Positions 7,604-63,941 of a DNA stretch of 64,000 bases are shown here, piece by piece. The stretch is from an uncultured bacterium (lineage in GTDB: Bacteria > Patescibacteriota > Minisyncoccia > Phycocordibacterales > PALSA-1337): NCBI GenBank assembly GCA_963848635.1, contig CAWKEA010000006.1, positions 4,419 to 68,418 on the forward strand, given 5' to 3'. The notes beneath the pieces are model-generated. The model ran no database searches. It saw only the letters and a program-made list of their open reading frames with translations, and was not told where the DNA came from. Each line of letters begins with the position of its first letter. Within the stretch, counting starts at the first letter, position 1. The position numbers and the translations under genes were made by a program.

Positions 7604-7615
7604 TACTTAAATACT

Positions 7616-11973: not shown

Positions 11974-13070
11974 GGCAACTAGAACTTAAGTTTTAATAAT
12001 TCTCGAGGAATATTTTGATATAATTTGCACATGAAAAAAAGAAACAAAAAAGACTCACAAATTGTGACCGTCATGAGATTCATATATTAATCAGAAAGGG
12101 ATATACTCAAAGTGAGATTGCTGACAGAATTGGAGTAACACAAGGTGCGATCTCATATGAAATCAATCAGAAGACAAGAGATGATCGTTTGTACGATTCA
12201 GAATACTCAAGACACGTCACATACGTTCGTAAGCATCACAAACGTACTCGTGGCAATACGATTGCAGAACACCCAGATCTTCGAAAGACAGTAACCGAAT
12301 ATCTAATGGACGACCAATCACCAGAACTGCTCTCTGGAAGGCTTAGAAAGCTTCATGCAGATATTCCATACGTATCAGGCAGAACGATCCGTAAATTCAT
12401 CAAAAGTCCATATGGAAGAAGAATCGAAGCAAAGAGAAACAAAATCCACAGAAGAAGAGGTAAAAGAAGGTTGAAATTTGAAATCACTAACAAACGTATG
12501 ATCGACAAAAGACCAAAGTATATCAAGGACAGAAAGAGAATCGGTGATACCGAGGGTGACTTCATTGCTTCAGGTAAAACTGGTCTGGGTATGCTTCTAG
12601 TTGTAACTGACAGAAAGAGTCGTGCACCATTCCTTGAGAAGATATGTCCTGTATCAATCAGGACGATGGAAAATGGTTTCAGAAGAATCAAAAGACGTTT
12701 TCCTGAGTTAAAAACAGTAACTCTCGACAATGATATCTTGTTCATCCACCACAAAGAGCTCGAGAGGAAATTCCATATCAAAATCTACTTCTGTCACAAG
12801 CACTCACCTTGGGAAAAACCACTAGTGGAGAACAGAAACAAACTGATTAGAAGATACATTCCTAAAGGATCTGACATTTCAAGATATACACGCTATTACA
12901 TTCAAAAATTGGAAGCAAAATTGCAGAGACGCATCATGAAATGTTTAGACTACAAATTACCCAAGGAAATACTCGAAGAACATCGTAAACGAAAAAAGAA
13001 GCCCTAATCGCTTCCTTTCTGTTAGATTTTCCTTCTTAGAAAAATATTAAAACGTGGGGTGTGGGTGCCA
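11974..13070 (+). mobile_element. IS30-family insertion sequence, copy 1 (1097 bp); identical to 48344..49440
   Basis: The 1097-bp segment is 100% identical to the second copy. Imperfect terminal inverted repeats GGCAACTAGAACTTAAGTTTTAATA and ...TATTAAAACGTGGGGTGTGGGTGCCA. The flanking sequence differs between the two copies. Confidence 0.85.
12031..13007 (+). CDS. IS30-family transposase (HTH_38 plus DDE); ATG followed by an A7 run, main frame is -1 relative to the ATG
   Basis: The in-frame region upstream of the tracked ORF encodes an IS30-type HTH (LTNCDRHEIHILIRKGYTQSEIADRIGVTQGAISYEINQ). DDE-region signatures: VVTDRKSR, TLDNDILF, HSPWEKPLVENRNKLIRRYIPKG. The only start is ATG at 12031, in the +1 frame followed by AAAAAAA. 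One extra A, or a -1 slip, gives a continuous 325-aa protein. Confidence 0.8.
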
Positions 13071-17685: not shown

Positions 17686-18130
17686 TATGTATTTTATTTA
17701 AAGAACCACTTTGTTTCAGAACACTCTAGCTACGATACTACTTTGAAAAATCATGTCAAGCAATTGGCATAAAAAGCGAACCAAGCCAGCTTGGCTGGCT
17801 GCTTGGCTGGCTTTACAATATACCAATGGAATATGTTACAATATCGCTTGGAGCACTTTCGGCTATGCAATACGTAACGTGCGTGACGTACATCAAGCTC
17901 CTTTAACATGCACTATCCAGACTTCTAGATCTGGCACAAAGCGTGGGTAGTTTGCCCATGCGGGATGCCGGGTTGTGGCATTTTGATTGAGCCCATTGCA
18001 GCTCACCGCGCCTCTGGAGAATCGGAAGTTGCCTACATGGAATGGAAGATCGTGGCTTCCGCTCGTGCTACCGCGAAGACGTCTCGTGGTGCACGCACCT
18101 CACCTGGTTGTCCGAAAGCAACCAGGCTTT

Positions 18131-18210
18131 TTTATTCCGTCTAGCGAGGAGCGGCGTGGCCGCTTGCGGACATGACGTCCGAGCGAAGACGGATCAAACG
18201 AGTAAATACT
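18131..18210 (+). repeat. GC-rich intergenic repeat family B, copy 1
   Basis: tttattccgtctagcgaggagcggcgtggccgcttgcggacatgacgtccgagcgaagacggatcaaacgagtaaat is about 80% identical to 29641..29714. Confidence 0.6.
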
Positions 18211-29555: not shown

Positions 29556-29640
29556 GTGGATAAAATTATATTAATAAAAAAAATAACGCGATGCCCGTTG
29601 TTCGGCACCAGGTGTTTATGAGCCGATTATACTACATATT

Positions 29641-29714
29641 TTTATTCCGACAAGCGAAAAGCGGCATGGGCGCTTGCGGACATGACGAACGAGCGCAGTC
29701 GGAAGAAAGTAAAC
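29641..29714 (+). repeat. GC-rich intergenic repeat family B, copy 2 (upstream of ppdK)
   Basis: tttattccgacaagcgaaaagcggcatgggcgcttgcggacatgacgaacgagcgcagtcggaagaaagtaaac. Confidence 0.6.
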
Positions 29715-29905
29715 TTTATTTTTAGCCTATTTTTACAATGTATATACATTGTAAAAAGCTCGCCTAGAGGACTACCTCGTGTCAGCGAACGGGGATGACT
29801 TATAAAAACAGATCATGGGAATCAGAAAATTTATGGAAATCAAAAAGGGCGCGCCGTCGAACAATACCAGTGCTGGCACGATCAAGACTGATTGCACCCA
29901 ATCGA

Positions 29906-32162: not shown

Positions 32163-33362
32163 GTAACTCCTCACAACTCTGAGCGGCGCTTGTGGATAAA
32201 TACCTAGATTTCACAAGGGTTTTTTGGTAAAATGAGGGTATAAATGAGAGGTCAATTAAGCAGAGAAAGTAGGCTAGAAATCAACGTCACGAGGCTCAAA
32301 AACAATGCCTTACGGTTTCGCTCCACCATCAAGGAACTGAAACAGGTAATCAAGGAAAAAGACAGAAAAATACTTGAATTGGAAGCAAAACTAGTAGACA
32401 AAGAGTCTCAAAGGAAGGAATTGCTCTCATATCTCTACAAGCCAGGCAAGAAAGATCATACATCAATACCCCGAGGCAAGAAACTTGGCGCTCCCGCATT
32501 CCATAGGCCGATTCCTCCGGAGAGCACTGTTACCAAGGAATATTCATATACCTTGAAACAATGCCCGATATGCAAAGAATCGGTTGGCAAGGTCGTTGAT
32601 ACGGTAATCAAGTATACGGAGGACATCGACCTAAAGCCGAGACCAATGGTTACCAAGCATACCATTACCAGACATTGGTGCTCTCATTGCGAGACGTATG
32701 TAAAAGATCCTAATGTTCCTACGATTACAAGGATCGGAAAAAATGCTCTTGGATACGTTCTCTACGCCAGATATCGATTACGCCTACCAATGGAAAGGAT
32801 CAAGGAAAGCTTGCTTGATCTCTACAACTTCAAAATCTCCGAGGGTGAAATCGTGGCCACGTTAAAGGATGCTGAAGCTCTTTTTGGCAAAGATTATGAG
32901 GCCATCAAGGTTATGATCCAAGAAGCAAAAGCCGTATACGCCGATGAAACAGGCTGGAGAATGGACGGCAAGAATTGGTGGTTGTGGGTCTTTGCAACAA
33001 CCAAGGGTACGCAGTATGTGATTGAAGATACAAGAGGTATTCGACTTCCTTTTAAAGAAAGAATACCCTGATCCACTCGTTGATCTTGTAAAAAACCGCA
33101 TGCAAAAACATCGACCTTTTCTCTTCACTTGCATTGACCATGACGATGTCCTGCCAGAGAACAACACAGCTGAACGTGCCATCAGACCGCAAGTTGTTAT
33201 GCGTAAAATCTTTGGAGGTTCTCGATCATTGGCTGGAGCTAAAGCCCATGAAGTCAATTCCTCCGTCCTCGAAACCCTGCGCAAACAGAATCCGGATACC
33301 AATTTCTTCGATGTCGTAATACCCTTGCTAGAGAAGCGCCGCTCAGAGTTGTGAGGAGTTAC
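32163..33362 (+). mobile_element. IS66-derived non-autonomous element with perfect 29-bp terminal inverted repeats
   Basis: IRL GTAACTCCTCACAACTCTGAGCGGCGCTT (32163..32191) is the exact reverse complement of 33334..33362. The element encloses a degraded IS66 tnpC. Confidence 0.75.
32244..33354 (+). pseudogene. IS66-family transposase (TnpC) remnant: frameshifted and internally deleted
   Basis: N-terminal coiled coil plus zinc finger CPICKE...CSHCE. Start of the DDE domain YADETGWRMDGKNWWLWVF. C-terminal NNTAERAIRPQVVMRKIFGGSRSLAGAKAHE. About 150 aa of the catalytic domain are missing between them. The remnant is split over two frames (32244..33071 and 33022..33354). No tnpA or tnpB. Confidence 0.7.
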
Positions 33363-34030: not shown

Positions 34031-34370
34031 CCAAATCCATTCACTACACAACACCTGCGATTACTTCAATGGTGTTTTTTATTCCTCTTATTTAACAACT
34101 CTGTCCGAGAACTCATATTTTACATAACCCTCCCCGGTAAGAATCAACAAAGCCTCGAACTCTTCGACAAAAGAAAAACCGCCCTAGTGAGCGGTTTTCT
34201 TAAATTTGTTACTTAACACAAGTTTGGTGACCCTAGTTGTCGACGGTTGGAAACAAATGATTAAGGAAATAACGACTTGGAGTAAGTTCAGAAACACAAG
34301 AGATGATAATGTACAATAAAAATTGACATATCTGCTAAATAATAATATATTAATAAAAATCAGTTCCTGG

Positions 34371-35443
34371 CACCTCAACCCCTCAATTTGAACGCTCAAT
34401 ATTTCGATTAAGACGCGCCGCTAGGCGCTGTTTTTGTCTCTTTTCTTTCTCGTATGCTTCATCCGGAGTGAGCGAATTCAATACTCCCATAAATCTCCTG
34501 TTCATCTTCTCCTCTAGCTTTTTGATGAATTCCCTGGAATATTTGGAGATGTCGGATCCTTTTGGAATATATCGCCGCAAACTTTTGTTCAGTTGCTCGA
34601 TTGAAGGCTTCTCCCAAGGGGAATGCTCGTGGCAGAAGTAGATCTTGATTGAGAGTACTTTCTCCAGTCTCTTGTGTTCCAGAAGAAGAAGGTCGTTGTC
34701 GAAAGTGATCGTTTGCATCTCCGGATATCGATTCTTCATGCGTACAAGTGCTCGCTCTACGTTTCTGACGGACACCGGCAAAATCTTTTCCAGGAGATTC
34801 TTTCTTACCTTCCTGTCTCGAAGCCCCAAGACCATTCCTTTTCCGGATTTCCCCGAGACTATGAAGTCTCCCTCGAAGTGACCTAATCCCCAACGCATGT
34901 TGATTTTCATGGGTCTTTTGTCGATCATGCGCTTGTCCTTCAAGCGTTTGCGGCTTCCTTTGCGTCTCTTTCTCTTTCCGAATATCTTCTTCCTGTGAGA
35001 TTCAATCTTTCTTCCGTACGGACTCCGGATATATCTTCTCACGGCCGAGCCGGAGACATACGGCAGGCCCTTCTCGACGTTCTTCAATCTTCTAGCGATT
35101 TCCTCCGGCTCCTGGTCGTCCATGAGATGATACTCGACGAACGCGCGGAGGTCCGGATTGGAGGCGATCTTCTTACCTTCCTTTCTCTTGGCTCTCATGC
35201 GTACGCGCGAGATGTGTCGAGCATATTCCGCGTCGTACTTCCTGCCTTTCCTGCGCTTCTGGAGTTCGTACCAGATACCGCTCTTGGGACGTTTGAAGGT
35301 CTTGGCTATGTCCGATATCGAATGACCTTTCTCTATGAGTATCTCGATGTCTCTGCGGTCCGCGCACGAAAATCGCGACCATTTTCTGTTTTTTTCATGT
35401 GCTAATCATACACGAATCGTTCAAATCTCAAAGACAAATCACC
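34371..35443 (-). mobile_element. IS30-family-like insertion sequence (diverged copy), inserted between the R promoter and the R-ORF start codon
   Basis: Present in R copy A and absent from the otherwise identical R copy B, which is the empty site. CCTGG is duplicated at the junctions. Imperfect terminal repeats contain ATTTGAACG. Confidence 0.8.
34383..35398 (-). CDS. IS30-family transposase (diverged), with the same ATG-A7/-1-frame architecture
   Basis: Same signatures as the other IS30 transposase (GDFIVSGKSG, TFDNDLLL, HSPWEKPSIEQLNKSLRRYIPKGSDIS), at roughly 45% identity by eye. The upstream in-frame HTH (DRRDIEILIEKGHSISDIAKTF) lies in the -1 frame relative to the ATG at 35398, which is followed by A7. 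Confidence 0.75.
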
Positions 35444-35451
35444 CCTGGGGA

Positions 35452-35784
35452 ATGAAAGGACCCCAATATATGGACCGTAAACAAAGAGAAAAGGAAATGC
35501 GTGAGATGTATCCGAAACAGTTCAACCATCCAGAAATAAGGCCGGGTGAAATCTGGCTGGGGGATCAGATCTTTGATTTGGCCATTGCACATCAAATGAT
35601 ATATTCGACAAATGGTTTGCCAAACACCAGGCTCGGGAATCCTTCGCTGAGGGAACGCGAGGGGTGCGGCGATTTCAAGTTTGACTATCGTCCCCTGTTT
35701 GCAGACCTGCAAGAAGTCCTGGCACTCGAAGAAAAGAGTGCTCAGGAAAAAAAGCAAGGACAAGAAATGCCTGGTTCAAGCTAG
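35452..35784 (+). CDS. hypothetical 110-aa protein encoded in repeat R (copy A)
   Basis: MKGPQYMDRKQREKEMREMYPKQFNHPEIRPGEIWLGDQIFDLAIAHQMIY...; identical to 40431..40763. Confidence 0.45.
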   Translation: MKGPQYMDRKQREKEMREMYPKQFNHPEIRPGEIWLGDQIFDLAIAHQMIYSTNGLPNTRLGNPSLREREGCGDFKFDYRPLFADLQEVLALEEKSAQEKKQGQEMPGSS

Positions 35785-36008
35785 AAGATCCACTCAGACA
35801 AAATTCAATATTTTCGACAGACATTGCTGTCTGTCGTTTTTTACCCATTTGTGACCCTATTTAAGGAAAATCTTGAATTTTTGAAGCTCTATCTGAACCA
35901 GGCTTTTTGACGGCGTAATCGCCTTGTGGACGTCGCTCTACAAATAATCTTTTTGGTTTACTCATATACTAGAAGCGTATCACCTAAAACAGATATTAAC
36001 AATGAAAA

Positions 36009-38285
36009 CTATTTTTCTTCTTTGGTTATCTCCTTCCAACTATCTTCAGCTATATCTAAATTTTTCTTAACTTGCTCATCTTTAGATTTTTTAAGGTTGG
36101 CAAGTCTCTTTCCTAATGGGTATTTTTCCAGATTTATCCACAACCATTTTCCCTTAACAGCATAATCAAGCCACTGAGCCTGTTGGATTGATTCGAGCTT
36201 TTCAATCTTGGCTATTAGGGCATCCATTAACTCATTCGCATAAGCCTGTGGTGGTGCAATTATTTGGAACGAGGCATCATTAATAATCTGCGGAAAATTA
36301 TCTACGAGTATTACCGTATGTTTTGGTAAAATTTTAGGCCAAACAATTTCAGGTGAGCCAAGCTTATTGGTTACAAGGAATTTGAGTGCTTGATTGAGAA
36401 TACTGAAATCCTGAGCCGCATCAATCTTTACAAGAATCCTCTCCTCAATATCGACTCTCTTCCATGGGGCATCTTTTTCATCTGACTTCAAAATGGCCCA
36501 TGAGGTAATCTCTTGATTCAGGGCACTGATTTCATCGAAGATTTTCGTTTTCAATAAATTATCTCCGTCTTTAACATAATTTTTGATGATTATATATCGA
36601 TTTTTTCTTGCCTCAACATTTGGATCTTGCACTAAGTTATCAATAAGTGATGTCTTAATAAGACCGATCTCTTCTTGGATTTTTTCTATCTTCAACTTGG
36701 AAAAACGATCGATCATTAAATTAAGGGCTTCAATTGAATTTCGCCCATAGTAATCCTTAAGCCAATTAGCAATAAAGTAACTCTTGAAGGACCCTGCATT
36801 TTCCATTTTGATTGAGTTGAATTGATCAAGATCAATCGATGAAAATTTTAGTTTAAAGAGACCAGAGACGGTATCATCATTAAAAGAATCTAACCACTGC
36901 CAAAAAATATTCAGGATCTCCATCTTGGGATTCGGTGCTATATTATTGAGAAAACTATAGTCAGTTGGGGCTAATTTTTCTGCAAAAATCTTATGAGTAG
37001 GAACTTCCGATGGAAGGTCAACCAAGGCCATTAACAATGTCTTTAGAAAGTTAACTTTTGTTGGTTCGGCTACAGAAGGTGCCAGTTGTGTTATAAAGCC
37101 TGTAACACCATCAGTTGCCCTTGTAGGTCCCATGGATGATAGATGAGCACGTACCTGGACGGGGTCTCCAGTTCTAATGGCTTCCATAAAGTCCTCGCTC
37201 GATGGTCCACGCTGATCACCAAAACTCGTATCTGCGGCGAGAGAAAGATAGGGTTGAAGATCGAGTACTTTAAGATTCGAACCATTATAGAAATGCGGCT
37301 CTTCATATATAAACCTTTTCAGAAAATTCTGTTGGCTAAAAGACAAATCAGCTTTATTTTTTTCAACTACTTCATTGATTTGCGACGTATCTTTTTTCTC
37401 TACAGCATACTCAAGAGTACGAAGAATCTCCGGATCAACTACTATCTTGTCAAAAAGGGGTGCGCATAATTCCTGGATCACAAGAATACGAACAACGAAT
37501 AGTGGATTCTTTAGCATTTCTTTGAAATATGCTGCTCTTTTTTGATCGGTGTCCTCGGACTTCTGTTTTACAATTTGAAATGTGAACAGTGTCGTATCTA
37601 TGAACCTAATTATTTGCCTAAAATTACTTTCAAAATATTTGCTCAGATAGTTTGAAAATTTTGTTTTCTGGGCATCGTCTGAAAAAAACTCTTGGAGAGC
37701 TTCCGTATGTTTACCGAATTCGCCAGTGATAAAAGCATCGATGTCTTTTTTGATTGGGAGAGGTAAACGCCAATAAACATTGAATATCTTTTTCAGAAAT
37801 CTCCTGCCCTCTTCTAATTGCTCTGGTAGAAGACTGTCAGGAAGTAAATCTCTTCCAAGATAACCTTCTAGAACTGTCTGATCGCCAGTTACCACAAAGG
37901 TGATTTCTTTTTTATCAAAAAAAGTCCTGAGATTATCTAGAACATCCCTTGCCATTCCCGGTGTTACTCGATCAAGATCATCAACAAAGATAATCACTTT
38001 TTTCTGTTTAGTGCGAAAATGATCCAGTCTCTTATTTAGAAGATCATCAAACCTGTCCATTGTAACAATCGCATGATCAGTCTTCTGCGTCACAGTAATA
38101 CTTTGAATCACAGCTAAAAAGATCGGGATAATCAAGGTCACAAAGAAAAATTTCCACTGTACTGAAAGATTGGTAACAAAATTAAATAGTGGGCCATAAG
38201 TAAAAATTAAACAAATAACCACTAAGAAAAAATACCAGCCAGGAGAATAACTCCCAGTTAAGGATATTTTTTGAGACATCGACAT
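36009..38285 (-). CDS. KAP-family P-loop NTPase, main body (TM helices plus Walker B DDLDR plus C-terminal region)
   Basis: N-terminal hydrophobic helices precede KKVIIFVDDLDRVTPGMARDVLDNLRTFF. This is the Walker B / DDLDR signature with the membrane insertion typical of KAP NTPases. The Walker A segment lies upstream in another frame (next feature). Confidence 0.6.
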   Translation of the reverse strand: MSMSQKISLTGSYSPGWYFFLVVICLIFTYGPLFNFVTNLSVQWKFFFVTLIIPIFLAVIQSITVTQKTDHAIVTMDRFDDLLNKRLDHFRTKQKKVIIFVDDLDRVTPGMARDVLDNLRTFFDKKEITFVVTGDQTVLEGYLGRDLLPDSLLPEQLEEGRRFLKKIFNVYWRLPLPIKKDIDAFITGEFGKHTEALQEFFSDDAQKTKFSNYLSKYFESNFRQIIRFIDTTLFTFQIVKQKSEDTDQKRAAYFKEMLKNPLFVVRILVIQELCAPLFDKIVVDPEILRTLEYAVEKKDTSQINEVVEKNKADLSFSQQNFLKRFIYEEPHFYNGSNLKVLDLQPYLSLAADTSFGDQRGPSSEDFMEAIRTGDPVQVRAHLSSMGPTRATDGVTGFITQLAPSVAEPTKVNFLKTLLMALVDLPSEVPTHKIFAEKLAPTDYSFLNNIAPNPKMEILNIFWQWLDSFNDDTVSGLFKLKFSSIDLDQFNSIKMENAGSFKSYFIANWLKDYYGRNSIEALNLMIDRFSKLKIEKIQEEIGLIKTSLIDNLVQDPNVEARKNRYIIIKNYVKDGDNLLKTKIFDEISALNQEITSWAILKSDEKDAPWKRVDIEERILVKIDAAQDFSILNQALKFLVTNKLGSPEIVWPKILPKHTVILVDNFPQIINDASFQIIAPPQAYANELMDALIAKIEKLESIQQAQWLDYAVKGKWLWINLEKYPLGKRLANLKKSKDEQVKKNLDIAEDSWKEITKEEK

Positions 38286-38529
38286 CTAATTTTTTTAGCT
38301 CATGCTGATTACTCAGACTATCTTCAATATTATCGCTATCAGTCTTACGATAGAGAATTCTTATGAAATTTCTTAAAAATGATATTCTATCTACAGAAAA
38401 TTTCCACGGGTTAATATCAAAAAATTCGAATGAAGGGTCAAGCTCCTTTAGATACTTCTTTAGATCATTTAGAAAATGGGTCTTGCCTTCACCCCATTTA
38501 CCAGATATGCCAAAAATAAATGAGCCATC
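38286..38529 (-). pseudogene. KAP NTPase N-terminal Walker A segment, out of frame with the main body
   Basis: The minus strand encodes ...FGISGKWGEGKTHFLNDLKKYLKEL..., a GxxGxGKT P-loop. ATG at 38529 is in the +1 frame relative to it; a T5 to T6 change would fuse them as MAHLFFGISGKWGEGKT. A second 1-nt shift separates it from the ORF starting at 38285. Confidence 0.5.
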
Positions 38530-38691
38530 TTCCTTTTGATGTCTTCAAGCTAAGGTCTTTCCGATCTCTTTTATAAATGGGGTTCGATTATCCACAGAAC
38601 ATAATTTAACCAAAAAAATTATGTTCTGTCTATCTTATCAACTAAAATATTTCTTACTTCCTAACCGAAGAAAGTACAGTCCCATATACGG

Positions 38692-39438
38692 TCATGATAC
38701 ACCAGAAATTTCTAAAGAGCTTATAATCCTCCCCTCCTTTTCATGATCTAGTTTATAAGGAATCGAATCCTCTTCAAAACCAAACATCCTATAAATCGGC
38801 TGTATTATTTCATAAGTGATCTTTCCAAGAGCGGCGCGGTCATCTTTGAATTGAGTTGTGTCAAAAGAGAGAGTAAACTCATTTTCGCCCCCTTTCCAAT
38901 ATGCTTTACGAGTATTAATTTTCATAGGTCTTATATCTCCATTGACTAAATAATGCTTATCTTTTTGTAACCCAGCAAAACCTACCAGACATTCGACTGT
39001 GGGCCCTGGATTCTTGATATCTTTTAGAACCCTATTGAAAGCTATGACTGTATTAAAAGTAAACTCGATAAGGGCAAGCGGGTGTATCCGTGATTGATTT
39101 GTCTCAGCCAAAGCCTCTCCGGCACCCCAACAGAGAAAGTTTGAGATGAGTGCTCCTTGGACGATCAGAGTGCCATTATCTTTCACCTGGATCCTCTTGA
39201 AGTTATTTTCCGACTCGATACCGTGCAGATTGATTTGATAGCCGCCAGGCATTTCAAGATCCCATCCATGATGACGCAAGCGAAACGCTTTCTCGAAATC
39301 AGACTTCAAGCTGCCTGGTTCGTTTGAGAATAGCGTCTTCACAATATTAGAGTTAGAGCCTTGAGCGGCTTTTACAGAAAAGACCATGTAATAGAATGGT
39401 TCTGGAAAGACTGTTCCTTTTAGAGGTAGCGTACTCAT
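38692..39438 (-). CDS. hypothetical protein (248 aa), middle gene of the putative defence-like operon
   Basis: Intact ORF; no motif recognised. Confidence 0.55.
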   Translation of the reverse strand: MSTLPLKGTVFPEPFYYMVFSVKAAQGSNSNIVKTLFSNEPGSLKSDFEKAFRLRHHGWDLEMPGGYQINLHGIESENNFKRIQVKDNGTLIVQGALISNFLCWGAGEALAETNQSRIHPLALIEFTFNTVIAFNRVLKDIKNPGPTVECLVGFAGLQKDKHYLVNGDIRPMKINTRKAYWKGGENEFTLSFDTTQFKDDRAALGKITYEIIQPIYRMFGFEEDSIPYKLDHEKEGRIISSLEISGVS

Positions 39439-39483
39439 AAATATTTTTTGTAGTCCTTTATGTTACCGAATCTATCATACTCT

Positions 39484-40095
39484 TCAAATATCTTTTTCGT
39501 AGACTGGCCTGTCTGCTCTGATCAGCACGTCCAACTTGCCGTCCATTGAAACAAGGTGACTTTCGTAGTGCTGGCCTCGCCGGAGAGTTTCGTGGATCTG
39601 CTCGATGTGTGTGGCAGTGCCATGCTCCCCCGTCCTTGAATAATAGGCGAGATAGTCCAAGTTGTCTCTGCTGAGTTTCACCAGATATGGTCTGTCTCCG
39701 AGATCTTGGGGTATTTCGATATACAGCACATCTTTGCCATCTAAAATGCCGTATCGAATGTCGAATCTGACCTTGGGGTATACGTGATTTTCCAGATGCT
39801 GAGTGATTGTTTGTAAGTTTATTTTTGCCTTGTCAACACCCACCACATGATCAATTATTTTGTGAGGGCTGTTAGGCGCAGGTGTCTCAGCAATGCCAAC
39901 TATGATAAAGCCACCTCGTCCGTTCGCAAAGGCGCTGACATCCTTGCATAGTTCCCTCTGCTCTTTTTCAGAGCCGAGATCGTATAGCCGCTCTTTTACA
40001 TCAAGAATGGCGTTCTCGAGCTTTCCTTTGACGACCGAAAAATCTCCGGACTTGAGCATTTTCTGAAGATCATTGTATGTGTAGGAGTGTTCCAT
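39484..40095 (-). CDS. AlbA_2 / Schlafen-like ATP-dependent DNA-binding domain protein
   Basis: The segment VVKGKLENAILDVKERLYDLGSEKEQRELCKDVSAFANGRGGFIIVGIAE matches the AlbA_2 pattern (E..K......AFaN..GG.i.iGv.d). Confidence 0.55.
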   Translation of the reverse strand: MEHSYTYNDLQKMLKSGDFSVVKGKLENAILDVKERLYDLGSEKEQRELCKDVSAFANGRGGFIIVGIAETPAPNSPHKIIDHVVGVDKAKINLQTITQHLENHVYPKVRFDIRYGILDGKDVLYIEIPQDLGDRPYLVKLSRDNLDYLAYYSRTGEHGTATHIEQIHETLRRGQHYESHLVSMDGKLDVLIRADRPVYEKDI

Positions 40096-40283
40096 AATTT
40101 CATTTTGGACACTATTTTACCACACTTTTTTGTCTTTTTAACCTAAAATTGGGCCGACACAGCCGATCTAGAAAACGGCTCTAAACCGTTGTTCCAGAAT
40201 CCTCAGTTCGAGACCCGGAAGGGTGCTCGATTACCGGGCAAAAAATTTGGCTTAAAATAAGGGCAACTGAGTCGGCCTTGAGT

Positions 40284-40864
40284 GTGACCCTAGTTGTCGA
40301 CGGTTGGAAACAAATGATTAAGGAAATAACGACTTGGAGTAAGTTCAGAAACACAAGAGATGATAATGTACAATAAAAATTGACATATCTGCTAAATAAT
40401 AATATATTAATAAAAATCAGTTCCTGGGGAATGAAAGGACCCCAATATATGGACCGTAAACAAAGAGAAAAGGAAATGCGTGAGATGTATCCGAAACAGT
40501 TCAACCATCCAGAAATAAGGCCGGGTGAAATCTGGCTGGGGGATCAGATCTTTGATTTGGCCATTGCACATCAAATGATATATTCGACAAATGGTTTGCC
40601 AAACACCAGGCTCGGGAATCCTTCGCTGAGGGAACGCGAGGGGTGCGGCGATTTCAAGTTTGACTATCGTCCCCTGTTTGCAGACCTGCAAGAAGTCCTG
40701 GCACTCGAAGAAAAGAGTGCTCAGGAAAAAAAGCAAGGACAAGAAATGCCTGGTTCAAGCTAGAAGATCCACTCAGACAAAATTCAATATTTTCGACAGA
40801 CATTGCTGTCTGTCGTTTTTTACCCATTTGTGACCCTATTTAAGGAAAATCTTGAATTTTTGAA
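40284..40864 (+). repeat. 581-bp direct repeat R, copy B (uninterrupted; empty site for the IS30-like insertion)
   Basis: Identical to copy A minus the IS. It begins TGTGACCCTAGTTGTCGACGGTTGGAAAC and contains the promoter at 40380..40408 (TTGACA-N17-TATATT). Confidence 0.85.
40431..40763 (+). CDS. hypothetical 110-aa protein encoded in repeat R (copy B)
   Basis: Identical to 35452..35784. ATG lies 23 nt after the -10 element. Confidence 0.45.
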   Translation: MKGPQYMDRKQREKEMREMYPKQFNHPEIRPGEIWLGDQIFDLAIAHQMIYSTNGLPNTRLGNPSLREREGCGDFKFDYRPLFADLQEVLALEEKSAQEKKQGQEMPGSS

Positions 40865-40926
40865 TGAAACATTTGGAAACGCAAAGCTAGAGTCTCAACA
40901 TCCTAGAAAGGATTAACAAGTTGGCA

Positions 40927-41475
40927 CTAATTCAAAACGACACGTAATTTCGGCCACTTTTTTAGCCAATTCTTACTTTTAACTCTAGTATAAAAAATCC
41001 CAAGGTTTTCTCTATGACTAGGACTAGGTCTGACTATCAAATTAACAAGGTCGCTAATTCCGTGTGGTGCAATTATTTTAGGCTCTCCGTCTACCAGGGT
41101 TACTGCCACACAAGTAGGTGTTTCTACCCACTCTGATAGTGCATCAGATGTATTTTTATATGGCATTTTTCTGCTATGCCACTTGTGGGTATATGATTGA
41201 TTCACGATTTCCCAACTTAATCCCAGTACACCTTTCATTTTGCCTGAAAGCTTCTTGTCAGATTCTTCTGTGTTTTTTTCATCAAAATAAACCAGATCAA
41301 TATCATTGGTGTCGGCTATTTCTCTTTTTATATTGTGAAGCTTGTCCCAGACTTTATTCCTTAAAAAACCTGCTCCGATCATCCAGTCTGGCAAGTTAAG
41401 CTTGTCTGCTTCATAAAGGACATTCATCATCCACCTGTCTTCTTTAATCATTAGAATCAAATCAATTTCATTCAT
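40927..41475 (-). CDS. nucleotidyltransferase-fold protein (NTP_transf_6/DUF925-like)
   Basis: MIGAGFLRNKVWDKLH...TNDIDLVYFD has a GxGxxRN...DIDLVYFD pattern characteristic of that minimal nucleotidyltransferase family. Confidence 0.5.
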   Translation of the reverse strand: MNEIDLILMIKEDRWMMNVLYEADKLNLPDWMIGAGFLRNKVWDKLHNIKREIADTNDIDLVYFDEKNTEESDKKLSGKMKGVLGLSWEIVNQSYTHKWHSRKMPYKNTSDALSEWVETPTCVAVTLVDGEPKIIAPHGISDLVNLIVRPSPSHRENLGIFYTRVKSKNWLKKWPKLRVVLN

Positions 41476-41548
41476 ATTTAAAGTATAACAGAATTCTGAA
41501 CACCAGTGAGGTATACTGAAAAAACAATATTGTTAGCCTGGAAAAACC

Positions 41549-41620
41549 TGTGACCCTAATTAGAGCTGATTGGAACTAGTTGATCAAGGAGATGATACTT
41601 TGGCAAGAGTTTAGGGCTCG
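41549..41620 (+). repeat. third copy (diverged, ~65%) of the R 5'-end motif TGTGACCCTA...GGAACTAGTTGAT...
   Basis: ctgtgaccctaattagagctgattggaactagttgatcaaggagatgatactttggcaag aligns with the first ~70 nt of R. Confidence 0.5.
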
Positions 41621-41624
41621 GTTG

Positions 41625-42140
41625 TTAAATAACTCTTATAATCCCATTATCCGCATCTACTTCAATTTGATCTCCTGTCGTAAGGATTTTAGAGGCAAAT
41701 TTAGTGCTTATTATGCAGGGCTTGTTCATCTCTCGAGCAACAATAGCCGCATGACATGTGATACCGCCTTCATCTGTGATAAACGCTATCGCATCAGAAA
41801 AATAGGCGGCTAATTCAGGACGTGTCATGGGGGTTACAAGAATATAATTTTTCTCATCGCCCAAGACTTTTTTCGCGCTCGGATAATCCTCCTCTGACAA
41901 AACAACAACTCGACCGGATGCTTTGCCTTTATGAGCGGTCTTACCCTTGATAAAGCCCAGTTTTCTAGCCTCCTCAATATTTTCTATTTCCCTATCCTGC
42001 TGGTGTAAAAAATCAGCAATCGGTCTAACTAAATCATCGGTCAAAATAGAAAGTTTGTTATCGATCAGGACAAAGGCTACGGGACGGTTTTTAATTGCAA
42101 ATTTAATAACCGATTGATTGCCTTTGAGCAACTCGACCAA
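41625..42140 (-). pseudogene. 3' fragment of a PEP-utilizing enzyme (mobile phosphohistidine domain only)
   Basis: GGITCHAAIVAREMNKPCI is the PEP-utilizers signature. The N-terminal ATP-grasp / PPDK_N part is absent. The fragment abuts the R-end-like motif. Confidence 0.6.
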
Positions 42141-42580
42141 TTCCCCAAAAGCGTATCAATCAGCTGGAACTCAATGAACGCCGAAAGAAGAAGATACGCG
42201 AAGACTTGGCCTATCTGAACGCCAATAGGCTCTCGCTCCTCAAAACGGGCGCGTATACGCCGGAAAAGCTCGTATCTGAGGAAACTAACCTCAACATCGA
42301 ACTCACTGTTCTGTGCGAAACGGAGATGACCTCCGATGCCTCTATGAGAGAGACAATCAAAGAAGTAGTAAAACTTTCCGAACTCATCAAAAACCTATTG
42401 CCTCATTACTCGTTTGCCAAACCTGAACAGAAAGACAGAATGATACGAATTATTTTTTCCGAACTTACCTTGTCCGAAAATACGTTGCAATATAAGTGTA
42501 AAAAAGGATTTGAAGCCCTTTCTAGTCGTTTCATTGCCTCTTGTGACCCAAGTGGTCAACGGTTGGAAACACATAGGTGA
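42128..42580 (+). CDS. hypothetical ORF (probable gene fragment; no ATG, TTG at 42206)
   Basis: The open frame begins right after a stop at 42125-42127. It runs through the fourth copy of the TGTGACCC motif (42542..42600), which supplies its C-terminus. Coiled-coil-like (LELNERRKKKIREDLAYLNANRL). Confidence 0.3.
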   Translation, partial: ATRPIPQKRINQLELNERRKKKIREDLAYLNANRLSLLKTGAYTPEKLVSEETNLNIELTVLCETEMTSDASMRETIKEVVKLSELIKNLLPHYSFAKPEQKDRMIRIIFSELTLSENTLQYKCKKGFEALSSRFIASCDPSGQRLETHR

Positions 42581-42600
42581 GGAGATAAGACATTTTCAGC
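42542..42600 (+). repeat. fourth copy (~75%) of the R 5'-end motif
   Basis: tgtgacccaagtggtcaacggttggaaacacataggtgaggagataagac. Confidence 0.5.
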
Positions 42601-42611
42601 TATTCATCACA

Positions 42612-42650
42612 TAGAAAAAGCTCTGCAAAACTTTCGAAATGCAGAGCCTT
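42612..42650 (+). terminator. hairpin terminator
   Basis: GCTCTGCAaaactttcgaaaTGCAGAGC followed by CTTCTTTG. Confidence 0.45.
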
Positions 42651-42871
42651 CTTTGAAGATACGATAGCGACTATAGGAGCGCGAAGCAATGCGAACGGGA
42701 GCGTAAGGCGCGCGGCAATACCCTGTAGAAGCGGACATGCTCGCGCTTCCATTGGTTATTAAGCACCACGGACATTATCCGCGACCGTGTACGGCTTGGC
42801 TCGCCACAAAATTATCATCACCATTTCTTGCTCAAACTCTGCTCAACAAATTTCTAATATTCATCAAAAAA

Positions 42872-42905
42872 AAGGGTACGATTTTACTCGTACCCTTGAG
42901 GGGAG
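42872..42905 (-). terminator. rho-independent terminator for the small minus-strand gene
   Basis: Minus strand: GGGTACGagtaaaatCGTACCC followed by TTTTTTTT. Confidence 0.55.
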
Positions 42906-42925
42906 CTTGGAGACTTTTGCCGCCC

Positions 42926-43108
42926 TTACTGATTTCGGCGAAAAAATCTCTTAATCCTGCCGATAAGGCGATCCAAGGCATCAGGATTTTCGGCTGCTTT
43001 CCGGCGTTGCTCTTGTTCTTGCTCAATCAAGGCGTTATATGCCTCGGGATGCCTCCGAGCCAAAGCACCTCTCTCATACTCTTGTTGATCTAAGGGGTGA
43101 GTAAACAT
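42926..43108 (-). CDS. small charged helical protein (60 aa)
   Basis: The ORF is followed by a strong terminator. It sits at the head of the aaRS-paralog cluster but is divergently oriented. Confidence 0.35.
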   Translation of the reverse strand: MFTHPLDQQEYERGALARRHPEAYNALIEQEQEQRRKAAENPDALDRLIGRIKRFFRRNQ

Positions 43109-43201
43109 ATCAATCCCTCCTTTCTGAAAAGAATCTTAACACACATTTGCCGAGTATCACAATAGATTTTATTTGATGTCATTTAGCAGTATAATGGTAT
43201 T

Positions 43202-44320
43202 ATGATCGACAAATTTTTTGAAGACGAATTAAAGCTTGCAACAGATGATGCGAATGTGTTTACTTCGCTCAATAGTCAACATATTCTTCGACCACCTTCA
43301 TACGATCCGAATAGATATATTGATGATTTGGTCAACAATAAATATTTTGCTGCCCTTACAATTTTAAGACACCACATTAAGCGCGCGAGTGACGAATATT
43401 GGTCAGGTGTCGGGGCAAAAAATATTGATTTGTTCATGATGACACCCAGCGCATCTTCCCCTATGGGGCCTGGATCTGATTCTGAAGTCATAACTATTCA
43501 ATTTGGAGATAACAAGACCAATCTTACCGACTCATCTCAATTCGGATTTGAGCCACTTATGTTTCATTTTGATAAAGTTTACTGCTACCTTCCATCAATG
43601 CGTGGAGAAAATCCGGATGCAAGACACCTCAATCAATTTTTTCATTGCGAAGCAGAAATTGTTGGTACTCTAGAAGTTTTACTACCAATCGTTGAGGGCT
43701 ATGTGCGCGCCCTTTCTCAAATACTGATTGCCCTCACACCAATAGTTAAGCTTATGAGTATTGACTTTGATAAGACAAATTCTACATTACAATCTATTAT
43801 TTCTTCAAATTCTTTTCAGAGAAAAACTTTTGATGAGGTGTATCCCTGGCTGCAACAAAATCCATCTTTTTACACGAAGAATGATTTTGGCAGAAATATC
43901 ACAAATTCCGGAGAGATAGCACTTGCGGAACATAATGGTGAAGGATTACCTATGTGGCTATGCTCTTATGACAGAGATATTGTGCCATTTTATCAAAAAC
44001 CAAATCCTGCTGATCCAAACATAGTTATTAACGCGGACTTATTATTTAATCCGATCGTTAAAGGAGGTTTTGGCGGCGAAATCGTTGGTTCTGGACAGCG
44101 TCAAAACATACCCGAGGAAATAGTTGAATCCATGGGTAGACAACAGGTTGGGATTGAGCCATACGAGTGGTACATAAACTTGCGCAAGTATCCACATTAC
44201 AAAATTACGTCAGGATTCGGACTTGGTATCGAGCGTTTTATAGCCTGGGCACTTGGATATCCAGATATTAAAGATGTAATTCATTATCCACGACTTAAAA
44301 ATATTAAAACATTACCTTAA
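43202..44320 (+). CDS. class II aminoacyl-tRNA synthetase catalytic-core paralog, AsnA/AsnRS-AspRS-like (no anticodon-binding domain)
   Basis: PSMRGENPDARHLNQFFHCEAEI is a class IIb motif 2 (compare AspRS [20 protein letters not shown]). ESMGRQQ...EPYEWYINLRKYPHYKITSGFGLGIERFIAWALG contains motif 3 GLGIER and parallels E. coli AsnA SSMGIRVD...GGGIGQSRL. 372 aa is catalytic-domain size. Confidence 0.7.
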   Translation: MIDKFFEDELKLATDDANVFTSLNSQHILRPPSYDPNRYIDDLVNNKYFAALTILRHHIKRASDEYWSGVGAKNIDLFMMTPSASSPMGPGSDSEVITIQFGDNKTNLTDSSQFGFEPLMFHFDKVYCYLPSMRGENPDARHLNQFFHCEAEIVGTLEVLLPIVEGYVRALSQILIALTPIVKLMSIDFDKTNSTLQSIISSNSFQRKTFDEVYPWLQQNPSFYTKNDFGRNITNSGEIALAEHNGEGLPMWLCSYDRDIVPFYQKPNPADPNIVINADLLFNPIVKGGFGGEIVGSGQRQNIPEEIVESMGRQQVGIEPYEWYINLRKYPHYKITSGFGLGIERFIAWALGYPDIKDVIHYPRLKNIKTLP

Positions 44321-44337
44321 TATGAAAAAAGAAATAT

Positions 44338-45167
44338 TTGACTCATTTTTTAATCCCTACTCAAAAAACGGTTGACGATGTCGCTACTGTGAGTGCGTTT
44401 TGGAGATTATCAGACGAGATTATTACAAAAATAATTCAACAGGAAATTGCACCGTACTGCACGAATGAATCGTTGATAATGGATGCTGGCGGAGGGACTG
44501 GTCGTTGGGCAGTAAAGTTAAGTAAATTCTTGAAAGGTAAAATTGTGGTCTTTGATCGTTCAAAGGATATGCTCGCCAAGGCGCGGGAAAATATCGAACA
44601 TGGAGGTGCTTCTGACCGAATCAATATTGTTGAGGGAGATTTAACAAACATTGAGCATTTCAAGAATGAAAGCGTTGATCATATTGTAAGTATCTACAGT
44701 CCCCTGAGTTTTATCTACGAACAAACAAAGGCAGCCCAAGAAATGCTTCGTATTTTGAAGCCGGGTGGTCGAATACTTATTATGAGTCATGGGCATTTCA
44801 ACGCAATAGCATCAAAAATAAACAACTACAAAGCTAGTTTGAAAGAGCTGAAAAATCTTTTGGATACACGAATGGTCAAATGGGCACCGCCATGTCCCCA
44901 GAACTAGTAACTCATTCTAAAGAATCCATTGAGAAACTATTTTCGGGTGTCGGCTTTCAAATTATCAAAACATACGGTGTTCCTGTGTTTGTTCAACCCG
45001 GAAACGAAGACTTTGATCCAAACAATAGAAAGAAGAGTGGGATAAGTGAATACATAGAGGATACTGATAATTTTGCATCAATACTCGAGCTCGAAATGAA
45101 GTATAACTCTTTAGACGCGGTTGCTAATCGCGGCATGAATATTTTTATGTTAGCCGAGAAGAAATAA
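44338..45167 (+). CDS. class I SAM-dependent methyltransferase, frameshifted in an A5 run (~44851-44855)
   Basis: Motif I MDAGGGTGRWAVKL; post-II ILKPGGRILIMSHG. The C-terminal part continues in the -1 frame (44880..45167); one extra A in GCTGAAAAATC joins the two. Confidence 0.7.
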
Positions 45168-45171
45168 TCCT

Positions 45172-46068
45172 ATGAAAATATCAACACTTACACAAAAATA
45201 TCCATGGCTTAAACATGAGAATTCCATAGAAGAATATTTACCACCGGAATACTATAAACAACTACTTCGCCAATATACATTTAATGGAGCTTCTGATCTT
45301 CAATTACTTGAAAATTTCCTAAAAAATAAAACAGCTTCAAATATCTTAGAACTTGGTTGTGGAAGTGGTAGAGCCTCAAACATTGCCGTCTCTCTTATCC
45401 CGCGAGCTGCATACACTTTTTCTGATTTAAGTGAACGCATGCTTGATACCGCGAAGAAACACTTACCTCCCAAATCATCTTTTGTTATAGCTGACGCTAT
45501 TGAATTTATGGAGAGGACAAATGAGCAATATGATTTAATATATACACTTTGGAGCTTCTCACATTCTACTCATCAACATATACATCGTCTGGGGATAGAA
45601 AATGCGAGACATTACATCTCTTCAGTAATTAAAAAATTCGTTAAGGAAAATATAAGACCCGGTGGCTCATTCTTCTTGATTCATTTTGATTCACTTTCTG
45701 ATGAGCAACGTATTCTTATGTCCCAGTGGAAACGTATATTTCCGGCATTTACAAACACCGAACAGCAGAGTCCTTCAAAACAAATTATCGATCATGTCCT
45801 GTTAGATCTCGATAACAATGATACGATAACTCTGTCTATTGATCATATGCATGGTGATCCTATTGTCTATGCAACAGAAAATGATATGCTGGAAACATTC
45901 ATGAATTTTCATTTAGAGACTTACTTTAATACCTCGCCTGCTGTTGCTGATATCGTAGAGGATATTAGGTCTCAGGCTGAAAGATATCGGAACATAGACG
46001 CTTCGTATGCAATCACTCCCGGATGCTATATGTATTCATTTATTAAAAATCAACAGACAAAGTTATGA
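45172..46068 (+). CDS. class I SAM-dependent methyltransferase
   Basis: ILELGCGSGRAS (motif I) and DLIYTLWSFSH. Confidence 0.75.
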   Translation: MKISTLTQKYPWLKHENSIEEYLPPEYYKQLLRQYTFNGASDLQLLENFLKNKTASNILELGCGSGRASNIAVSLIPRAAYTFSDLSERMLDTAKKHLPPKSSFVIADAIEFMERTNEQYDLIYTLWSFSHSTHQHIHRLGIENARHYISSVIKKFVKENIRPGGSFFLIHFDSLSDEQRILMSQWKRIFPAFTNTEQQSPSKQIIDHVLLDLDNNDTITLSIDHMHGDPIVYATENDMLETFMNFHLETYFNTSPAVADIVEDIRSQAERYRNIDASYAITPGCYMYSFIKNQQTKL

Positions 46069-48343: not shown

Positions 48344-49440
48344 GGCAACTAGAACTTAAGTTTTAATAATTCTCGAGGAATATTTTGATATAATTTGCAC
48401 ATGAAAAAAAGAAACAAAAAAGACTCACAAATTGTGACCGTCATGAGATTCATATATTAATCAGAAAGGGATATACTCAAAGTGAGATTGCTGACAGAAT
48501 TGGAGTAACACAAGGTGCGATCTCATATGAAATCAATCAGAAGACAAGAGATGATCGTTTGTACGATTCAGAATACTCAAGACACGTCACATACGTTCGT
48601 AAGCATCACAAACGTACTCGTGGCAATACGATTGCAGAACACCCAGATCTTCGAAAGACAGTAACCGAATATCTAATGGACGACCAATCACCAGAACTGC
48701 TCTCTGGAAGGCTTAGAAAGCTTCATGCAGATATTCCATACGTATCAGGCAGAACGATCCGTAAATTCATCAAAAGTCCATATGGAAGAAGAATCGAAGC
48801 AAAGAGAAACAAAATCCACAGAAGAAGAGGTAAAAGAAGGTTGAAATTTGAAATCACTAACAAACGTATGATCGACAAAAGACCAAAGTATATCAAGGAC
48901 AGAAAGAGAATCGGTGATACCGAGGGTGACTTCATTGCTTCAGGTAAAACTGGTCTGGGTATGCTTCTAGTTGTAACTGACAGAAAGAGTCGTGCACCAT
49001 TCCTTGAGAAGATATGTCCTGTATCAATCAGGACGATGGAAAATGGTTTCAGAAGAATCAAAAGACGTTTTCCTGAGTTAAAAACAGTAACTCTCGACAA
49101 TGATATCTTGTTCATCCACCACAAAGAGCTCGAGAGGAAATTCCATATCAAAATCTACTTCTGTCACAAGCACTCACCTTGGGAAAAACCACTAGTGGAG
49201 AACAGAAACAAACTGATTAGAAGATACATTCCTAAAGGATCTGACATTTCAAGATATACACGCTATTACATTCAAAAATTGGAAGCAAAATTGCAGAGAC
49301 GCATCATGAAATGTTTAGACTACAAATTACCCAAGGAAATACTCGAAGAACATCGTAAACGAAAAAAGAAGCCCTAATCGCTTCCTTTCTGTTAGATTTT
49401 CCTTCTTAGAAAAATATTAAAACGTGGGGTGTGGGTGCCA
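48344..49440 (+). mobile_element. IS30-family insertion sequence, copy 2 (identical to 11974..13070)
   Basis: 100% identical over 1097 bp with different flanks. Same orientation as copy 1. Confidence 0.85.
48401..49377 (+). CDS. IS30-family transposase (copy 2; same ATG-A7 architecture)
   Basis: Identical to 12031..13007. Confidence 0.8.
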
Positions 49441-49498
49441 CCTTGAAACTGAGTATATCTATAGCACAAATACATCTTTTTGTACAGAGTCAGATGGG

Positions 49499-50343: not shown

Positions 50344-50527
50344 TCAGATGGGTACTCTACTAAACATGGAAAATGGAAAAGTTTTGAAACCAAGCCTGAA
50401 ACTCGTCTCCGTTTCCAAAATTTGATCTTTAAAGAAAATCTAGAATTTTTAAATGAAACATTTGGAAACGCAAAACTAACGCCTATTTACAAGCTATATC
50501 AATCATACTTGACCGATAAATCCCAAT

Positions 50528-63752: not shown

Positions 63753-63941
63753 GTGCTTTCTTTCATTAATTCTGGTAAAGAGTACTTTCTTCCGTCTTTG
63801 CTCGTACGCCATGTCCGCAAGCGGCAACGCCGCTACTCGCAAGCCGGAATAAATCGAACGGGGATCGTCTTGGATTATATCGTAAAGAAAAAAAGCGGTC
63901 AATCCGCTCTCTGTGGAGATATGCGGAAACAAAAGCCAGAT

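Follow-up and report, generated by a model that had tools for sequence, protein, structure and literature searches.

The 64,000-nt stretch of contig CAWKEA010000006.1 (assembly GCA_963848635.1, an uncultured member of the Patescibacteriota), referred to here as the window, contains two identical copies, A and B, of a repeat named R, one of which is interrupted by an insertion sequence (IS) named IS-A. Our overall interpretation, which we consider very probable, is that IS-A, a 1075-bp element of the IS30 family, inserted into one of the two R copies at the triplet CCT, and that it belongs to a clade in which the start of the transposase gene lies out of frame and would be recoded by slippage. 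The specific mechanism proposed for the recoding is held more tentatively. The features of R needed for the comparison are the following.

34227..34368, plus strand: left arm of R copy A, with the 5' junction motif, a conserved 63-nt leader region, the promoter and the first predicted transcript nucleotides; 100% identical to 40284-40425
34323..34351, plus strand: R promoter of copy A, TTGACA-17-TATATT, 11/12 consensus positions; the same sequence lies in copy B at 40380-40408
34366-34368, plus strand: target triplet CCT, first copy, at the end of the left arm of copy A
35444-35446, plus strand: CCT, second copy, at the start of the right arm of copy A
35444..35885, plus strand: right arm of R copy A, with the open reading frame (ORF), the terminator and the 3' short motif; 100% identical to 40423-40864
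40284..40864, plus strand: R copy B, the uninterrupted, empty site, with its promoter at 40380-40408, target CCT at 40423-40425, ORF at 40431-40763 and terminator at 40794-40815

A repeat finder and an exact base-by-base extension agreed that positions 34227-34370 are identical to 40284-40427 (144/144) and positions 35444-35885 to 40423-40864 (442/442). In copy B, the two segments overlap by the five bases CCTGG (40423-40427), and copy A corresponds to R plus 1073 extra bases with CCTGG on either side; the same extension confirmed that IS-A is absent from copy B. R measures 581 bp and is identical between the copies at 581 of 581 positions, which rules out chance, and the identity ends abruptly at all four outer borders, where the flanks are distinct and the two copies sit in unrelated contexts. 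The first-pass annotation had described an uninterrupted copy B and a copy A identical to it apart from an insert, the filled and empty sites of an IS30-like element thus being kept in paralogous copies. It had also placed the insertion between the TTGACA-N17-TATATT promoter (34323-34351) and the ATG of a 110-aa ORF (35452-35784), uncoupling one from the other, and had called the transposition recent; the pairwise comparison agreed with this description, the recency of the event being reflected in the identity of the whole repeat.

Integration would have occurred at CCT, 15 nt 3' of the -10 box, with duplication of this triplet. The integration point would fall within the first ~10 nt of the R transcript (~8-10 nt past the predicted start) and 5 nt 5' of the first ATG of the ORF. 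Because the R copies are identical, R would have been duplicated first and the IS inserted afterwards, both events being recent. The insertion itself is an ordinary event and part of routine genome flux. The parts of IS-A are listed below.

34369..35443, minus strand: IS-A, IS30 family, 1075 bp, termini GG...CC; absent from copy B, with the homology of relatives L014 and L015 spanning the same limits
34369..34394, minus strand: IRR, the terminal inverted repeat at the transposase 3' end, GGCACCTCAACCCCTCAATTTGAACG, conserved in relatives
35418..35443, minus strand: IRL, the terminal inverted repeat at the transposase 5' end, GGTGATTTGTCTTTGAGATTTGAACG when read on the minus strand
34383..35398, minus strand: transposase gene, with a 339-codon frame at 35402-34386 and the stop codon at 34385-34383, encoding HTH_38 and the DDE triad
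35405..35410, minus strand: -10-like hexamer TATGAT, exactly 6 nt 5' of the transposase ATG

The transposase matched the NCBIfam equivalog NF033563 (transpos_IS30) over profile positions 1-264 of 267 and scored 168.8 bits where the cutoff is 80, and the Pfam domain HTH_38, a helix-turn-helix (HTH), was located at residues 7-49, in keeping with the earlier designation of the insert as IS30-like. The DDE triad (D176, D232 and E266, with spacings of 56 and 34) was invariant in a three-way alignment with two relatives; spacings of ~55-60 and ~33-34 residues are typical of the IS30 family. In the genome collection, the closest relatives of IS-A reached at most 44% identity and occurred in metagenome-assembled genomes (MAGs) of Patescibacteria, and the characterised plasmid-borne IS30-family transposases (ISApl1 and others) shared only ~30% amino acid identity with IS-A. 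A scan of metagenomes yielded 80 loci (L014-L093) at 46-89% amino acid identity to the IS-A transposase. Classical IS30 elements carry one uninterrupted ORF. IS-A is a member of the IS30 family by its transposase, size, duplication length and general end structure and departs from it in lacking an uninterrupted ORF; the out-of-frame start is a variant within the family and not an argument against membership.

Upstream of the HTH, the transposase frame of IS-A contains no ATG, GTG or TTG. The only start candidate is the ATG at 35398-35396, which is followed by a run of seven A (35395-35389) and lies at +1 relative to the transposase frame, i.e., the transposase lies at -1; one added A would give a protein beginning MKKNRKWSRF. 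The gene callers' product is 271 aa long and devoid of the HTH. The same arrangement of an out-of-frame ATG and an A run was found in L001 (ATGAAAAAAAC), from a MAG, and in the second IS30-family element of the window, T2 (GCACATGAAAAAAAG), whose transposase is 49% identical to that of IS-A and which is present in two copies.

11974..13069, plus strand: T2 copy 1, IS30 family, 1096 bp, with the target duplication ATA and the ATG-A7 out-of-frame start
48344..49439, plus strand: T2 copy 2, identical to copy 1, with the target duplication ACC

Among the metagenomic relatives, 76 of the 80 have an ATG directly followed by A5-A9, which is in frame in none of them, and the remaining four likewise start out of frame; in these, a stop codon of the transposase frame lies just upstream, and a displaced run of A5-A7 comes in between. 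Taken together with IS-A, T2 and L001, an A5-A9 run was present in 83/83 elements and none was in frame. The shift required is -1 in about three quarters of the relatives and +1 in about one quarter. The ATG frame encodes a peptide with a median of 16 aa (range 4-156) that shows no conservation beyond MKK, and the transposase frame is open for 325-338 codons in the relatives and conserved from immediately after the A run. The more distant relatives L002-L011 have an in-frame ATG, and most of them also bear a -10-like hexamer 5-8 nt upstream. An error in sequencing the homopolymer was considered for the A7 of IS-A and rejected, as the same run is present in the independent short-read contig L013 and the arrangement is clade-wide.

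The sequences preceding the start were compared over 66 unique start regions of the relatives. The pattern TANNNT lies exactly 6 nt before the ATG in 58 of them, positions -12 (T), -11 (A) and -7 (T) each being ~91% conserved, and a Shine-Dalgarno-like motif was found in only three. A -10 box conserved at 6 nt before the ATG, together with the scarcity of Shine-Dalgarno motifs, suggests that the transposase mRNA is leaderless and would start with AUG-A(n). RNA polymerase would then slip on the A run within the initially transcribed region (from A7 to A8 in IS-A), only the slipped transcripts, a minority, would yield full-length transposase, and this dependence on slippage would keep transposition rare. 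What the comparison shows is the conservation pattern; where transcription starts, that slippage occurs and that RNA polymerase rather than the ribosome is responsible are inferred. For the clade as a whole, which comes mostly from uncultivated groundwater and sediment bacteria including Patescibacteria, our tentative proposal, to which we give somewhat less than even weight, is an obligate out-of-frame start, a leaderless AUG-A(6-9) mRNA and an active transposase obtained only via polymerase slippage.

Recoding could instead occur at the ribosome, by a programmed -1 or +1 frameshift on AAA-AAA-A in the first codons, or at the DNA level, by replication slippage with ON/OFF phase variation. A-rich heptamers are classical -1 sites, as in IS1 (A6C) and IS3 (A6G) (PMC3711429, PMC4066793), and poly-A tracts are slippery for DNA polymerase too (PMC3711429). 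In contrast, members of the clade need either -1 or +1 with similar runs, so that slippage adding or removing an A fits better than a frameshift in one direction, and the 0-frame phasing ATG AAA AAA ACA is not the canonical X_XXY_YYZ. As for phase variation, near-identical copy pairs on different contigs had equal run lengths in 21/21 cases, and this option is disfavoured because in-frame copies are entirely absent among the 83 elements. Ribosomal frameshifting is a serious alternative; the two options together appear unlikely, and slippage of RNA polymerase is the mechanism retained below.

The arrangement of the two R copies was compared with an independent short-read assembly (Logan, run ERR10755936, k-1 = 30 nt). 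Contig L013 corresponds to window positions 34341-35430 at 100% identity, spans the junction between the left arm of R and IS-A, and ends exactly 30 nt into that arm; contig L012 corresponds to 40835-44363, also at 100% identity, and ends exactly 30 nt into the right end of R. Contig ends of this kind are what a branching of the assembly graph at these R borders would produce, with filled and empty junctions and two right-hand contexts present in the reads. The copies are direct repeats flanking a segment formed by KAP, orf248 and SLFN. It might be proposed that strain variants or a mis-joined repeat underlie the window, for instance L-R-Z together with a circular or amplified X-R and the IS in one subpopulation. 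Such a topology would be favoured by the length of R (581 bp), which exceeds that of short reads, by the breaking of the Logan contigs at every R border, which leaves the linkage without independent confirmation, and by the three differences in 1.6 kb between the window and contig L098, which indicate strain heterogeneity or errors. It is nevertheless quite improbable, given the four distinct flanks and the termination of L013 (IS side) and L012 (Z side) exactly k-1 nt inside R, and the filled and empty sites would still coexist under it.

The limits of IS-A were set by comparison with 14 related elements. L014 and L015 are both 1075 bp long, and their homology to IS-A ends exactly at 34369 and 35443. 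Twelve closer relatives, whose nucleotide identity to IS-A is 65-86%, start with (G/T)G and end with ...G(C/T)GCC without exception, and the asymmetric ends of the IS-A type are conserved across relatives. The copies of T2 read ATA-GGCAAC...GGGTGCC-ATA and ACC-GGCAAC...GGGTGCC-ACC, with GG...CC termini and 3-bp duplications; L001 has the duplication AAC and termini 17 nt outside the conserved 9-mer, and the duplications of L018 and L028 are TAT and AAA, respectively. Elsewhere in the clade, 3-bp duplications were thus observed for five insertions (ATA, ACC, AAC, AAA and TAT), or six when IS-A is counted. Because the relatives keep the terminal GG and CC and show 3-bp duplications, IS-A was assigned to 34369-35443 with the target duplication most likely being CCT, the GG of CCTGG representing the IS terminus, which coincides with the next two target bases. 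The element had previously been placed at 34371..35443 with a length of 1073 bp, and the comparison moves its left end by 2 nt. The sequence CCTGG does occur on both sides of the insert in copy A and once in copy B, as had been noted; the duplication itself appears to be shorter than this.

The alternative of a 1073-bp element (34371-35443) with the 5-bp duplication CCTGG is allowed by the window on its own, where these five bases flank the insert on both sides and occur singly in copy B. We regard it as very improbable, since all close relatives retain two further terminal bases (...GGTGCC) and, with the GG counted, the conserved 9-mer ATTTGAACG falls at positions 18-26 of both ends; the lengths of L014 and L015 and the 3-bp duplications of the clade also speak against it. 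Members of the IS30 family are known to generate target duplications of 2-3 bp. The GC content is 47.7% in IS-A and 40.6% in R. A target-site consensus was sought by eye across the six sites, and nothing convincing emerged; the palindrome TTCC-N3-GGAA at the target site of IS-A is off-centre.

The weakest alternative, that the transposase was inactivated when an A8 run lost one nucleotide and became A7, leaving the insertion as a fossil, draws on the missing in-frame start and on other broken genes of the window (pyruvate phosphate dikinase (PPDK), KAP and the IS66 remnant) and is scarcely credible, as the same arrangement recurs in 80/80 relatives from many metagenomes and in T2 and L001, random decay would not repeatedly strike one site yet leave ~335 codons open, the identical R arms make the insertion recent, and T2, with the same 'defect', has two identical copies with differing 3-bp duplications. 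By this comparison, IS-A is not a decayed copy, and the out-of-frame start is the invariant state of the whole clade.

Several observations weigh against our interpretation. The terminal inverted repeats of IS-A are weak: in register, 13 of 26 positions match, among them the terminal GG and the subterminal 9-mer. Seven or eight metagenomic relatives showed no flanking duplication, which may result from chimeric assembly across a multicopy IS or from recombination between copies. The insertion in copy A, taken alone, is compatible with CCT followed by GG and with CCTGG alike, and the 3-bp reading rests on homology. Contig L013 ends 13 nt short of the right end of IS-A rather than 30 nt into the right arm of R; a branch, a variant or a drop in coverage may account for this, and the junction at this end forms a hairpin (35439-35455). 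The order L-R(A)-X-R(B)-Z across the 581-bp repeat rests on the assembly and is beyond the reach of short-read contigs, and the other disrupted genes of the window (PPDK and KAP) may reflect some assembly error or strain mixing. Finally, productive slippage during elongation has been documented on runs of A8-A9 (PMC1088944), and the A7 of IS-A falls short of these.

Regarding the consequences of the insertion for the neighbouring genes, the transposase of IS-A is read from 35398 to 34383 on the minus strand, away from the R-ORF and from KAP. Two further features are relevant here.

34415..34428, plus strand: terminator-like hairpin GCGCCGCTAGGCGC followed by TGTTTTTGTC, inside IS-A, identified by pattern match only and facing transcripts from the R promoter
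36009-38285 (comparison span 36009-38690), minus strand: gene of a KAP-family nucleoside triphosphatase, convergent with the R-ORF

The first-pass annotation had the element pointing outward toward a KAP operon. This claim was not sustained, given the direction of the transposase gene and the convergent orientation of KAP, and a pattern scan of the KAP-proximal end of IS-A found no promoter-like site facing outward toward the R-ORF or KAP. Transcription from the R promoter of copy A would now enter the transposase gene at its 3' end, in the antisense direction, and would meet the terminator-like hairpin ~50 nt inside the IS. Because no outward promoter faces it, the R-ORF of copy A is probably silent, and that of copy B is probably unaffected and expressed. 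KAP is itself a pseudogene in this window, with the Walker-A N-terminus located in another frame behind a stop codon. In Logan contig L098 (ERR10755936) the gene is intact, and relative to that contig the three differences in the window are a GGA-to-TGA nonsense change, one missense substitution and one inserted nucleotide that is not part of a homopolymer, which points to strain heterogeneity or assembly error. The insertion offers a clean natural before/after pair that fixes the ends of the IS and its target, and, with copy A cut off from its promoter and copy B intact, what the insertion does to the R-ORF can be gauged against a control within the same window.

The ORF carried by R and the motifs that delimit the repeat were located as follows.

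35452..35784, plus strand: R-ORF of copy A, 110 aa, with an alternative start at 35470 (104 aa) preceded by AAAGGA 9 nt upstream
35815..35836, plus strand: intrinsic terminator of R copy A, whose homologue in L095 carries a compensatory stem change
40283..40329, plus strand: 47-nt junction motif TGTGACCCTAGTTGTCGACGGTTGGAAAC..., also at 34226-34272, 41549-41595 and 42542-42588
35850-35859 and 40829-40838, plus strand: 10-nt short form of the junction motif

Database matches of the R-ORF were limited to three proteins: an identical one, encoded on an 84.8-kb NCBI/ENA contig, and a pair that shares 69% identity with it. The differences to the 69% homologue numbered 25, 14 and 38 at codon positions 1, 2 and 3, respectively, and this third-position enrichment, along with the compensatory stem change, indicates that the R-ORF and its terminator are real; the ORF is an orphan gene. 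Searches of Pfam, NCBIfam and PADLOC gave no match for it, and its AlphaFold model had a mean per-residue confidence (pLDDT) of 48.8, too low for use in a fold search. A homologue of R in contigs L094-L097, from a related lineage, aligned to window positions 40282-40836 with 74% identity, exactly from motif to motif. None of the neighbours is shared in that setting, where they are a Pyr_redox_2 gene and an HTH_17/Fic pair. The left border of R coincides with the start of the junction motif, whose consensus is TGTGACCC(T/A)AG...GGTTGGAAAC and which separates gene modules and bounds R in two lineages. R behaves like a discrete cassette bounded by the TGTGACCC motif and composed of a strong promoter, a 104/110-aa orphan ORF and a terminator. 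The stretch following the junction motif could encode a short peptide, (M/V/L)IKE(I/M)..W, with a start codon that varies among ATG, GTG and TTG.

At the right end of R, positions 40839-40889, which run from the tail of R into the right flank of copy B, are 92% identical to 50428-50478, located 50-100 nt from the 3' end of tRNA-Glu. Because of this resemblance, the right junction of copy B looks ancestral, and the right border of copy A (35885/35886) looks like a novel joint. The junction motif matched the 3' end of tRNA-Glu at 11/12 and 13/16 positions; 11/500 and 20/500 shuffles scored at least as high, and the similarity is marginal. A degenerate tRNA-Glu 3' end (att remnant) as the origin of the motif is hence only a tentative lead. 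An integron attC site was considered for the motif and rejected, as it contains only a 5-6-bp palindrome and no attC-like structure, and a scan of the ORFs between 29.9 and 52 kb turned up neither an integrase nor a recombinase. The motif had no match in viral contigs. Rfam, applied to the island described below and to the whole window, returned only tRNAs above threshold; a sub-threshold match to a Leu leader at 34171-34291 was dismissed as a terminator hairpin. A second junction motif, ACAGGTTCGAAC...CATGCGGAGC, was observed in the other low-GC island of the window, beside tRNA-Asn, at 7613, 8832, 10910 and 11865 (31 nt) and at 4024 and 10973 (35 nt); arrays of this cassette-like kind next to tRNA genes may therefore be common to the genome as a whole.

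Both copies of R lie in an IS-rich, low-GC island of ~32-50.5 kb that abuts the 3' end of tRNA-Glu, beyond which a Mur-ligase gene is found. The island contains an IS66 remnant, T2, an IS1595-type transposase, KAP, SLFN/AlbA_2, NTP_transf_6 and phosphoenolpyruvate-utiliser genes, and the neighbours of the R-ORF include ORF156, SLFN/AlbA_2 and KAP. Exact-sequence look-ups of the proteins of the R-ORF, of these three neighbours and of the Mur-ligase gene gave no record. Each T2 copy is housed in a low-GC island, close to tRNA-Asn in one case and to tRNA-Glu in the other. The IS66-family remnant (32163-33362) has perfect 29-nt terminal inverted repeats and ~1.2 kb left; its transposase is split and internally deleted, with matches to NF033517 positions 9-192 and 305-374. 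An ORF for an IS1595-family (ISXO2-like) transposase at 49431-50336 adjoins T2 copy 2, ~190 nt from tRNA-Glu. Also within the island, a cluster at 43202-47105 encodes a protein resembling class-II aminoacyl-tRNA synthetases (tRNA-synt_2), two S-adenosylmethionine-dependent methyltransferases and an MccF-like S66 LD-carboxypeptidase, a combination reminiscent of loci for peptide-nucleotide antibiotic production or immunity.

Elsewhere in the window, the PPDK gene (26783-29555, minus strand) is split into ORFs of 678 and 292 aa by a frameshift near 27600 at GAGCTCGAACGG, which is not a homopolymer; it represents either a pseudogene or an assembly error. A GC-rich repeat of ~70-80 nt occurs in three copies (18129-18198, 29639-29718 and 63776-63853; two direct and one inverted), matches no Rfam family, and recurs with 95% conservation at 6649-6806 of L095, a related JGI contig. 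A tandem array at 4539-5366, inside the ORF 4122-5516, has a 138-bp period and ~6 units, the central ones being 94-99% identical.

Of the results presented here, the clade-wide start arrangement is more useful than the insertion. If the proposed mechanism is correct, obligatory recoding would extend to the IS30 family and would act as a throttle on transposition that has not been described for it. Annotation pipelines would then systematically call such transposases truncated or pseudogenes, and many 'broken' ones in uncultivated bacteria could be re-annotated. In the searchable literature, to which this statement is limited and which is no proof of novelty, we found no description of poly-A recoding, slippage or a relevant leaderless start in IS30; the family goes unmentioned in the work on transcriptional slippage (PMC1088944), the GeneTack survey (PMC3711429) and the 2016 recoding review (PMC5009743). 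As for R, the repeat and its junction motif suggest that this tRNA-linked, defence-like island, which lacks a recognisable integrase, is organised in the manner of cassettes. Like integron cassettes and tRNA-linked island arrays, R is a small single-ORF unit bounded from motif to motif among differing neighbours, and, as in the latter arrays, it sits beside tRNA-Glu in a low-GC island with defence-like and toxin-like neighbours. It differs from integron cassettes in having no attC-like imperfect palindrome, in the mixed orientations of the cassettes and in carrying its own promoter.

When compared to IS30 of E. coli and to the ISfinder IS30 family (ISApl1, ISSba10), IS-A shares the size of ~1.0-1.2 kb, a single transposase with an N-terminal HTH and a C-terminal DDE domain spaced 56/34, a score well above the family hidden Markov model cutoff, the 3-bp target duplication and, in a weakly matching form, terminal inverted repeats of ~26 bp. 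It differs in the matching of only half of the inverted-repeat positions (13/26), in the low amino acid identity (~30%), and, with respect to classical IS30, in a transposase that has no in-frame start and would depend on recoding at the A run by which the ATG is immediately followed. Transcriptional slippage has been reported for other IS elements, in which orfA-orfB fusions arise at A8-A9 runs, including IS630-type elements of Deinococcus, Nostoc and Roseiflexus (Baranov et al. 2005, PMC1088944). These elements resemble the IS-A clade in a conserved A homopolymer at the frame junction, in homologues that are never in frame and in the proposed effect, a low level of active transposase. In those elements the run joins two substantial ORFs mid-gene; in contrast, the IS-A clade has no orfA, its run begins at codon 2 and is shorter (mostly A6-A7), +1 and -1 offsets both occur within the clade, and the mRNA is probably leaderless.

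The closest parallel for the position of the proposed slip is reiterative transcription at pyrBI and codBA, where, as in the model for IS-A, polymerase slips on a homopolymer in the first ~10 nt while the RNA-DNA hybrid is short (PMC12709180). According to that genome-wide study of reiterative initiation, published in 2025, such slippage yields no frameshifts that affect translation. If the model holds, IS-A would represent slippage close to initiation that alters the reading frame, an outcome that the study states does not follow from productive reiterative initiation, and it would offer a small system, open to experiment, in which slippage confined to the first ten nucleotides of a transcript changes the frame. 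Cases of the pyrBI/codBA type regulate promoter escape or add nucleotides at the 5' end, whereas the slip in IS-A would take place 3' of the AUG and thereby alter the frame in which the transposase is read.

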